From contig JASAOG010000080.1 of NCBI GenBank assembly GCA_030265305.1, positions 1,746,630 through 1,810,629 of the forward strand: DNA of 64,000 bases, given 5' to 3'. Shown here in pieces: positions 35,001 through 39,903 of the stretch. The DNA comes from Biomphalaria pfeifferi (taxonomy: Eukaryota). Under the pieces are notes generated by a model. That model saw nothing but the letters and a program-made list of their open reading frames with translations, did not search any database and was not told the DNA's origin. The stretch's first letter is position 1. Each line of letters begins with the position of its first letter. The translations under genes and the position numbers were made by a program.

Positions 35001-38000
35001 AAAGTTTCAGTGTTTCACTGCTATTATAAAGTTTTAATGTTTCATCACAATGTTAATGTTTAAATATTTTACTGCTATTAATTCGGTATTATAAAGTTTG
35101 AATGATTGAAAGATTGATGAAAAATGATGGTGAACTTGAAGCCTTCTTGACAACACTAAAGTATCTGTTATGGTCAGGCAAGCAATTTAACAATTTCATT
35201 ATGTTTAAATATGGTCATAGAAGATCATTGATTCTTTTAGGTTTATAAGACATTGGTTGGGTACTGTATATAATGGTATAAATATATTTTTTTTACCTTT
35301 ATTTTTTTTCATAGCCAGTGCTATTTCATCATTGTTGTTTAAAACCTGCTTCTTGTTTTTTCCTAATGAAAAAAAGAAAAAAAAACAACAACATATTTGC
35401 ATTTTATAACAAAAAGAGTTAAAAGTGTTACAAACAAATTTCAAGGTGGCCCATTCTGGTCAGTTATTCACACAGAAAACTCACAGCTAAATTGCATTCA
35501 CAATTGCAAATAATTTAGTTTAAAAAAAAACAACTATTGATTAACAAATACTGTCATATATGACAAGATTCATTCCATGCAAGACACCAATCATAAAAAC
35601 AAACAGAGACAAGCATTGTTCCTTTAGTAGATAAATCAGAATAAAATCCATCTTTCTGATGTAAGCTTTACATGTAATGTTTGAGTGAAATTTTGGTATG
35701 ACTATATATTTCGTTTACTATCTAATGAACAATTATAAAACAAATTTCTTCAAGATAATGTAAATATTATTGTATTGATGTCTTACCAACTTTCTCTCCA
35801 TTAATGAAGGTTCCATTGCTACTAGTGTCTTCTAAAAATACATGGATGCCTGTGTTTGTTTTTTGCTGTGAAAACATTTGTGTTAAAAATTTGATACATT
35901 TTAGCTTTGTCAGTAACATCATTCATTCGGCTAATTTCACAGATAAATCAATTTTTTACAGAGTTCATATAATATGTTAACTACAGACCTGCCTACCAAA
36001 AAAAGTCCAAATGCGTAACGCTGATGGTCAAAATGCGTATTTTGGTACCAGAATGCGTAACACGATCCACTATTTTGTCATATATATATATACATACATA
36101 TATATATATATATATACACTTACATATATATATACTTACATATATATATATATATATATATATATGTATGTATGTATGTATGTATATATATATATATATA
36201 TATATATATATATATATATATATATATATATATATATATATATATATATATATATATATATATATATATATATATATATGTAAGTATATATATATGTAAG
36301 TGTACAAGGCAAAAAAATACACACATGCAAACATGCACATCTTTGTTTTATTTTATTGTGCAAAGAATGTATGTAAGAAACATTAAATGCAAAGAACGTT
36401 TGTTAGAAACATCTTCCTTAATTATTACTTATTAATTATTCTATTCGTGGTTTCAGTAACTTACAAAAGGGAACGATAGTAAGCCTATGGATGTCAGGTG
36501 TGTAAAAATCATCCTAGCCTGATACACAGTGGCTAAGTACGCATCTTAAGTAAAAAAAAAATTAGTAATAACAAGGAGTTAATTGACTGTCACAAATTAT
36601 TAAGAATATTGTTATCAAATCAAGATACTTAATTGCAGGAGTAATATTCAAGTTAACAAGTTAGAAAAAGTAATTCAACCGTAATATTTATTGACAGTGT
36701 AATATCCTTCTTAGCACGTTGTGTTTTTTCATTCTGGCTTAAAAAATGGTCAATGTCTATCAATAAATTGGATGTCAAGGACCAAAGAAATACAATAAAG
36801 AGTAGGGGGTGTTAAGCTCTCCATTTAAAGATAGCCCTGGTCGTGCCTTCTGCAAAATAATTAGTTACTGGCTTACTGGGCTATATAATCTTGCGGTTTG
36901 TGTTCTGTGTAGGTAAAGGTCACTCGTTTAGGTGCGTGTGATCTTTAGTCCAGCTTACTAATTGAGATTTATGTTTAAGTAACTCGGCACAGTTGAAAAG
37001 GTGTGGCCTCTAGACCAACCACATGATTAAGATTTTTCTCCAAATAAGCAAACTCTTTGTCCGGATGAAGTCTAGTCCCCCCCTCCCCAACTAAAATTAA
37101 CTACTAAGTAAACAAACCTACTTCCCTCGTGTGACCTCTAGAGAGTGCTTACGTCCATCGTATCTGACTTGGGGTCACCTGTCAATCAATGAACTCAATG
37201 TGATGGACTAAACAAATAAAAGGGGGAGGGAGTTGTTCATCTAGAAATATACCTAGTTACCTTAGAGGTGTGGCTATTGTAGTCCAGCCACACTAATAAA
37301 GATTAACTACTAAGTAAACAAACTCAGTTCCCTCGAAAGGTGTGACCTCTATAGAGTGTCAATACACTGACATTAAACCTACGTCCATCGTATTTAACTT
37401 GTGGTCACCTGCCTATAAAAAAACTCAACGTGATGGACTAAAACAATAAAAGGGGTGGGAGTTGTTCATCTCTACCTCTGAAGATATACCCGTACACCTA
37501 GACAGACGTCTGGTCAGCATGACGTAGTCAAGGAATGTAGGAATTTGTCAAGACAAATTGAAAAAAGTGCCAGCCATTGCTGCTCTGTATGCAAAGCGCA
37601 TTTATGATGTTAAGTTTCATTTCTTTTTATATTAAGTTATTAACACGCCTTGTCCTTATAATAAACGATGTTTGGTGCATATTCATAATAGCTCTATTTT
37701 TAAGCACATTAGTTTGTTTTAGTATAAACATTAATACATTCTACAAAAGACATTAATAGAACGAGGTCCACTTTATGCATATTAAATAGGTGTATTTTTT
37801 ACTATCCGGCAGTGATATCCGGCCGGAGCAGAATAACAAAAAATGCTGGATATTTGTCAGAAGCCGGAGCGACTATCCGGTGCACCCCTAATAAAATATA
37901 TATATATAATATTAGATCTAGATGTCATGATTAGATCTACAATCTAAATCTAGATCAATACGACAATAGAGATGATATCTAGCCTAGATCTGGATCTAGG

Positions 38001-39903: not shown

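Follow-up and report, generated by a model that had tools for sequence, protein, structure and literature searches.

A 64-kb stretch of Biomphalaria pfeifferi DNA (hereafter 'the window', meaning the whole of the 64,000 nucleotides that were analysed) very probably carries, within intron 2 of the gene for CHK2, the remnant of a non-autonomous class II DNA transposon, of the cut-and-paste type that is bounded by terminal inverted repeats (TIRs). The element has two matching termini and no coding capacity; it shares its ancestry with orthologous copies in Biomphalaria glabrata, differs from them in size through changes specific to the locus, and has termini homologous to those found in the DNA of another animal. 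An earlier note on the same DNA saw the element correctly, assigned its superfamily (Tc1/mariner-like) too confidently, and misread differences at the locus as accumulated 'cargo'.

Structure and termini of the element

The element and its immediate surroundings comprise the following features, given in the coordinates of the window.

35782-35868, minus strand: CHK2 exon 3 (FHA domain), located by tblastn, its AG acceptor 113 nt from the left end of the element
35978-35983, no strand: left flanking direct repeat TAACTA, its junction identical in the three B. glabrata loci
35982-35997, plus strand: left TIR TACAGACCTGCCTACC, with the core CAGACCTGCCTACC from 35984
35998-36079, plus strand: left subterminal region, with three AATGCGTA(A/T) copies (36010-36019, 36029-36042 and 36052-36061)
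36080-36304, no strand: expanded (TA)n/(TATG)n microsatellite, including a (TA)n array of ~215 bp (36080-36295)
36305-37895, no strand: 1.6-kb block, corresponding to the same alignment gap in all three B. glabrata copies
37896-38784, plus strand: conserved body common with B. glabrata (four-way alignment, 93% mean column identity)
38785-38800, minus strand: right TIR, an exact reverse complement of TACAGACCTGCCTACC, unchanged in four haplotypes
38799-38804, no strand: right flanking direct repeat TAACTA, established by reading the sequence and by alignment
38977-39102, minus strand: CHK2 exon 2 (...HFKLHR), located by tblastn, its GT donor 176 nt from the right end of the element

The perfect 16-bp TIR pair reported in the earlier note is exact: TACAGACCTGCCTACC occurs at two sites in the window and no others (35982-35997 on the plus strand and 38785-38800 on the minus strand), even when two mismatches are allowed, as compared with 0.02 matches in shuffled sequence. 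The repeat stops at 16 bp, where a C at 35981 stands opposite an A at 38801, and the outer flanks of the element are unique sequence, so that the two 16-mers are not part of a larger palindromic region with no defined ends. A second perfect inverted pair, the 14-bp CAAAATGCGTATTT, has its arms at 36029-36042 and 38765-38778, inside the 16-bp pair.

Both ends also carry subterminal repeats, as the earlier note had recognised. The motif AATGCGTAAC is found exactly at 36010, 36052 and 38695, always on the plus strand, and is accompanied by the variants AATGCGTATT (36033 on the plus strand and 38767-38776 on the minus strand) and TTTTGCGTTAC (38755). At the right end, the motif copies occupy 38695-38704 (plus strand), 38755-38765 (the TTTTGCGTTAC variant) and 38765-38778 (minus strand).

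The interior of the element contains no transposase reading frame, again in agreement with the earlier note. Outside the TA array no open reading frame exceeds 66 amino acids, and an exact look-up of the 66-residue frame in the protein collection returned no match; six-frame, stop-to-stop translations of the element core, compared with a collection of 5.8 billion proteins, likewise gave no match at E<=10, a negative that carries no information, since even the reading frames of this locus are missing from the collection. Scans of the element for Rfam families and tRNAs yielded only sub-threshold matches of miRNA models to the TA array, and no tRNA, and so speak against the 1.6-kb block having a SINE head.

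Several of the interior repeats differ from their original description. The (TA)n array is present as claimed, and the stretch 36115-36304, which overlaps it, forms a 190-bp palindrome (95% identity) whose GTAAGT interruptions are mirrored. Within the 1.6-kb block at 36305-37895 lie a degenerate tandem duplication and, at 37803-37880, three TATCCGG repeats. What had been called a '2 x 240-bp tandem duplication' proves to consist of units of only ~160-185 bp (37082-37242 and 37288-37471), repeated with a period of 206-230 bp and 75-86% identical, while the supposed 'CCGGATAT inverted-repeat cluster' is in reality three direct copies of TATCCGG (at 37803, 37816 and 37874), with no others in the window. 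The block is bordered on both sides by TA tracts (36080-36304 and 37896-37910); TIRs or a flanking duplication of its own were looked for and none was found, and no other copy of it exists in the window or in the three B. glabrata loci.

The conserved body begins with an AGATCT/TAGATC-rich region (37910-38360), followed by unique sequence (38361-38690) and then by the right subterminal region. Sequence rich in AGATCT is not peculiar to the element: it is also found at 39 kb and 46 kb of the window, and also in Physella.

The CHK2 intron and the orthologous copies in B. glabrata

The placement of the element in CHK2 was confirmed by tblastn. A human CHK2 sequence was used solely to locate exons, and a search with the joined-exon protein gave B. 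glabrata CHK2 as its best match; comparison of that protein (P0001) with the window shows the gene to run on the minus strand between 39903 and 25915. Window exons that encode GTGTYTK and PSGKRK agree with the B. pfeifferi protein KAK0054156.1, unlike the B. glabrata proteins. The element lies between exons 2 and 3, in coding intron 2, as had been proposed; it accounts for 2,819 of the 3,108 bp of that intron and leaves a remainder of ~290 bp. The splice sites of intron 2 are spared, both lying more than 100 nt from the element, and nothing suggests an effect on CHK2. The homologous intron of Physella acuta (L008) measures ~85 bp, a length that agrees, if weakly, with the element having been gained in the planorbid lineage.

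Three B. glabrata assemblies were compared at the CHK2 locus: GCA_025434165.1 (L001), the reference GCA_947242115.1 (L002) and GCA_025434175.2 (L003). The element occupies identical junctions in all three, and its TIRs are invariant across the four Biomphalaria haplotypes (the window and the three B. glabrata loci). The comparison with related haplotypes and species that the earlier note had recommended as a source of an empty site thus supplied none among these assemblies, every one being occupied; from the occupation of the same junctions it follows that the insertion predates the split between the species. Substitutions at the locus amount to 3.6% between the window and the three B. glabrata loci, and to 1.3-2.0% among the latter; the window thus belongs to a B. 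pfeifferi-like species.

The B. glabrata copies differ considerably from that of the window in their internal organization. The reference copy (L002 11174-12187) is only 1,014 bp long and consists of the 16-bp TIR, a left subterminal region of ~80 bp (97% identical to that of the window), a short (TA)7 tract and ~900 bp that align with 37896-38800; the 1.6-kb block is absent. In L001 and L003, 65 bp of the left subterminal region are missing and are replaced by (TACA)n/(TA)n expansions, which differ from the (TA)n array of the window. Because the reference copy is so short, the (TA)n array, like the 1.6-kb block, represents a difference that arose at the locus, and the description of the element as 'cargo-accumulating' is not supported as it stands; the same holds for the tandem duplication and the TATCCGG cluster within the block, so that none of these parts is demonstrated mobile cargo.

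The direction of the largest of these changes may be read in two ways. It is quite possible, if somewhat short of an even chance, that the ancestral element was ~2.6 kb long and already contained the 1.6-kb block, which B. glabrata would then have lost by recombination or slippage between TA tracts; part of the 'cargo' would in that case be original to the element. The TA tracts at both sides of the block in the window are consistent with such a loss, although any insertion into a TA tract would also leave TA tracts on both sides. The tandem units within the block are 14-25% diverged, far in excess of the 3.6% divergence between the species, so that the block is old sequence, and it is without TIRs or a duplication of its own, which points the same way. 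On the other side of the argument, the block is missing from all three B. glabrata haplotypes despite their differing microsatellites, a pattern that a single event on either branch would explain equally well, and the comparison is confined to these two lineages.

Related termini in the DNA of another animal

Relatives of the element were sought outside Biomphalaria by scanning JGI metagenome contigs with the relaxed pattern ACAGACCTGCCTACC-N(0-30)-TGCGTA. The single match, the 28.8-kb contig Ga0256844_10000147 (L006), is eukaryotic and AT-rich, and includes a (GT)n tract as well as a chromodomain reading frame. That frame extends past the edge of the locus, and translations of ten reading frames from the contig had no entry in the protein collection.

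L006 contains two related termini. The first (end A) reads ...ccatgcTA/CAGACCTGCCTACC/cgtacaaatttTGCGTATTTc... (slashes here and below mark the limits of the terminal repeat), and its full 16-mer is identical to the Biomphalaria TIR. The similarity continues inward: TGCGTATT is found at the same offset as in the Biomphalaria right end, the 20 bases inside the Biomphalaria right TIR can be aligned with end A, and an inverted copy of AAATACGC lies ~60 nt further inside. The second terminus (end B), located 381 bp upstream of end A and in the same orientation, reads ...aaaCG/CAGACCTGCCAACC/cttacggtctcgCCGTATTa..., in which CGTATT again stands at that offset, followed by six TTACGG subterminal repeats. 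The calculated chance expectation for a second terminus matching at 13 of 14 positions within this locus is ~0.002. One end could be read for each L006 element; the sequence near L006 position 1900, a candidate for an opposite end, is degenerate. Taken together, these alignments indicate that a terminus of ~36 bp is a conserved transposon terminus, found in two animals and on three or more types of element.

Other searches for copies were negative. An earlier scan of metagenome and prokaryote-genome contigs for the TIR plus AATGCGTA gave no match, nor did scans of viral contigs. The sole prokaryote-genome match, a contig of a Chitinophagaceae MAG (L007), is GC-rich coding sequence without the extra motifs and was set aside as a chance occurrence. 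Two Biomphalaria-like ENA metagenome contigs (L004 and L005), which were reached by way of a B. glabrata LINE reverse transcriptase, both lack the element, and no second copy was found in a total of ~170 kb of Biomphalaria DNA (the window, three 30-kb loci and the two metagenome contigs), a sample that covers <0.02% of the genome and makes this a weak negative. Neither an autonomous relative nor a transposase came to light in these searches. Full-text literature searches, whether on Biomphalaria TIR elements or on the terminal sequence itself, brought up no relevant paper; the matches to the sequence were PCR primers.

These results bear on whether the structure is a transposon at all. The 16-mer pair alone is weak evidence, because in windows simulated with a second-order Markov model the mean number of perfect, non-low-complexity inverted pairs of at least 16 bp within 6 kb is 0.58. 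That figure, the lack of a second copy in the sampled fraction of the genome and the chance agreement of a bacterial contig with the search pattern would all be compatible with an inverted repeat that arose fortuitously, or was made locally, around ordinary intron sequence and was never mobile. Such an origin nevertheless seems highly improbable. It would have to account for a GC-rich 16-mer (9 of 16 positions) in a window of roughly 31% GC, for a second perfect inverted pair nested within the first, for a direct repeat at both flanks, for the 85-bp length of the Physella intron and for two homologous termini, with an internal box at the same offset, in the DNA of another animal. The homologous termini are the main reason for accepting, with considerable confidence, the earlier note's view that these are transposon ends, rather than a chance palindrome.

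Flanking duplication and superfamily

The assignment to a superfamily is considerably less secure, and depends on which bases at the flanks are taken to be the target site duplication. The junctions read gttaacTA/CAG...CTG/TAactagt. The earlier note was correct that TA is present on both sides of the element, but each of these TAs already belongs to the 16-mer, as its outermost two bases, and the direct repeat is actually the 6-bp TAACTA. Because TA is palindromic, it can be counted either as part of the inverted repeat or as duplicated target, and the left flank offers four candidates: TA at 35982-35983, AC at 35980-35981, AACT at 35979-35982, or the whole of TAACTA. Each implies a TIR start and a pre-insertion site, as follows.

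Duplication TA: TIR starts CAG...; implied pre-insertion site ...GTTAACTAACTAG...
Duplication AC: TIR starts TACAG...; implied pre-insertion site ...GTTAACTAG...
Duplication AACT: TIR starts ACAG...; implied pre-insertion site ...GTTAACTAG...
Duplication TAACTA: TIR starts CAG...; implied pre-insertion site ...GTTAACTAG...

An empty site would accordingly be expected to read ATATGTTAACTAACTAGTAG if the duplication is TA, and ATATGTTAACTAGTAG if it is AC, AACT or TAACTA. The flanks of this one insertion fit the four equally well, and a rough likelihood comparison places the superfamily options within a small factor of one another. Some candidates can be set aside: a Kolobok or piggyBac TTAA target finds no TTAA at the right junction, and a Helitron or Helentron is at odds with symmetric ends and a flanking direct repeat.

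Tc1/mariner, reached by way of a TA duplication, is tentatively the single most likely superfamily, albeit at less than an even chance. The sequence TA-CAG... is a common Tc1/pogo terminus. In their short, CAG-starting TIR preceded by TA, with TA on both sides, the ends resemble those of Tc1/mariner (ITm) miniature elements (Stowaway-type, or derived from pogo/Tigger), as do the non-coding interior, the AT-rich intronic target and a length of hundreds of bp to ~1 kb. They depart from them in the 6-bp flanking repeat and in the related L006 terminus that is preceded by CG rather than TA, and from Tc1 elements of the IR/DR type in that the repeated subterminal AATGCGTA bears no relation to the sequence of the TIR.

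The combined probability that the element belongs elsewhere comes close to an even chance; the possibilities comprise a hAT-like element (with TAACTA as the duplication), a family with 4-bp duplications (AACT) and a PHIS/ISL2EU-like element (AC). The direct repeat extends beyond TA to 6 bp, and a TA duplication would require that the target happened to be TAACTAACTA, a coincidence calculated at ~1 in 1,000 before multiple testing. The subterminal motifs differ from the TIR, and L006 end B has six copies of its own TTACGG motif; elements of the hAT, P and CACTA superfamilies typically have several short subterminal motifs unlike the TIR. Non-autonomous (Ds-like) hAT elements offer a parallel, with a TIR of 14-16 bp starting CAG and a number of short repeats, in either orientation, near the ends (AATGCGTA here and TTACGG in L006 end B, to be compared with AAACGG in Ac). 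The 8-bp duplication of hAT elements is, however, absent (left GTTAACTA, right TAACTAGT), the shared repeat being 6 bp at most, and the terminus CAGAC fits the hAT consensus YARNG at four of five positions, the fifth base being C rather than G.

Evidence from other insertions is divided. A neighbouring element only 6 kb away (44909-47842), likewise with 16-bp TIRs, has a proven duplication of 2 bp, GA, from which it follows that short non-TA duplications occur in this genome; its terminal sequences have no similarity to those of the element in the CHK2 intron. Among the four independent junctions available (both ends of the element and the two L006 ends), TA adjoins CAG in three, and CG takes its place at L006 end B. 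Read as sequence, the three TA junctions favour TA either as the duplication or as part of the TIR, and are what would be expected of ITm elements, which in general generate TA duplications (PMC10045372), while the CG argues against an obligatory TA duplication and lends weight to a position outside Tc1/mariner. Duplications in the PHIS group (Harbinger, ISL2EU and relatives) range from 0 to 4 bp (PMC10045372), with which either AC or AACT would agree. In Repbase, non-autonomous elements are classed by the length of their duplication together with the first 11 terminal bases (PMC4455052).

A proposed history of the insertion

The transposon reading suggests the following sequence of events. 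Before the split between B. glabrata and the B. pfeifferi-like lineage, an element of either ~1.0 kb or ~2.6 kb would have been inserted into CHK2 intron 2 by a transposase encoded elsewhere, that is, by trans-mobilisation. That transposase probably recognised about the terminal 36 bp, composed of a repeat of 14-16 bp, CAGACCTGCC(T/A)ACC, and a (T)GCGTATT box at a fixed offset, and may also have bound the further AATGCGTA(A/T) boxes in the subterminal 100 bp. Once fixed, the element would have remained immobile at the locus and drifted neutrally as intron DNA. Its internal (TA)n tract expanded and became palindromic; the 1.6-kb block either entered that tract in the lineage of the window or was lost from B. 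glabrata by deletion between two TA tracts; and microsatellite sequence overwrote the left subterminal region in some haplotypes of B. glabrata.

Significance

As a genomic parasite the element is of an ordinary kind: an old DNA transposon, non-autonomous and belonging to an unnamed family. The comparison carries a methodological lesson, in that orthologues show the apparent cargo of a single copy to be mostly a microsatellite expansion and a 1.6-kb indel at one locus. It is conceivable, if unlikely, that the ~36-bp terminus marks an uncharacterised lineage of DNA transposons, perhaps with a non-TA duplication, that is present in a planorbid snail and in the unrelated animal represented in the metagenome; the identity of the 16-mer between the two could reflect either strong constraint imposed by a transposase or horizontal transfer. 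For Biomphalaria itself, the finding adds one unnamed non-autonomous family to the repeat catalogue, with little significance beyond annotation, and provides a shared-insertion marker that is older than the split of B. glabrata from the African Biomphalaria lineage.

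A second TIR element and its empty site

Beyond the studied element (35982-38800, in CHK2 intron 2), the window holds a second non-coding element bounded by terminal inverted repeats (TIRs), together with further perfect inverted pairs that may be the ends of other small TIR elements.

Inverted-repeat features of the window
44909-47842: second non-coding TIR element, 2,934 bp, perfect 16-bp TIRs TGGCGGAAAACAGATT
60361-60616: perfect inverted pair, 15-16 bp, TTAACTCTTTCTCTCC, span 256 bp
48988-51061: perfect inverted pair, 15-16 bp, CAAGGTCTGAAAGGG, span 2.1 kb
40205-41024: perfect inverted pair, 15-16 bp, GGAATTAAGTGACTG, span 0.8 kb

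None of the three B. glabrata CHK2 loci compared (L001, L002 and L003) contains the 44909-47842 element; the empty site there reads cttgctaGAtctag, and the occupied site in the window reads cttgctaGA[element]GAtctag. On this comparison of sequences, the element is a lineage-specific insertion accompanied by a 2-bp GA duplication. It contains a direct repeat of approximately 290 bp (44984-45273 and 45358-45641, 77% identity), and displays no similarity to the studied element.

Repeats inside and around the studied element

The TA microsatellite of the studied element (36115-36304) is a 190-bp palindrome (95% identity), the non-TA interruptions of which are mirrored (CACTTAC ... GTAAGTG); this arrangement suggests hairpin-templated expansion of the tract, rather than simple slippage.

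Other repeats
Window 28360-29381 and 40416-40907: dispersed repeat family, both copies matched by B. glabrata L001 8366-9823 (77-98% identity, with tandem structure inside)
L008 14735-20030: long tandem array, period approximately 64 bp, filling one intron of Physella acuta CHK2; similarity to window 36401-36443 is weak

A polymorphic LINE in B. glabrata CHK2

LINE sequences
L001 13331-16011 and L003 about 13331-15570: non-LTR retrotransposon, in the CHK2 intron that separates exons 4 and 5
Window 63532-63959 and 60890-60969: 3' fragments of the same family

The L001 copy has an open frame of 610 amino acids, and RVT_1 and endonuclease domains are found in its relatives. The window fragments share 93% identity with both L001 15585-16011 and the metagenome contig L004.

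Animal DNA also occurs in public 'metagenome' assemblies: the Biomphalaria LINE is present in L004 (ENA ERZ25072283) and L005 (ENA ERZ27287655), with protein identities of 86-97%, and L006 (JGI Ga0256844) is eukaryotic, animal DNA.

The CHK2-intron retrotransposon itself is found neither in the window nor in the B. glabrata reference (L002); being present in L001 and L003 and absent from L002, it constitutes an insertion polymorphism within B. glabrata.
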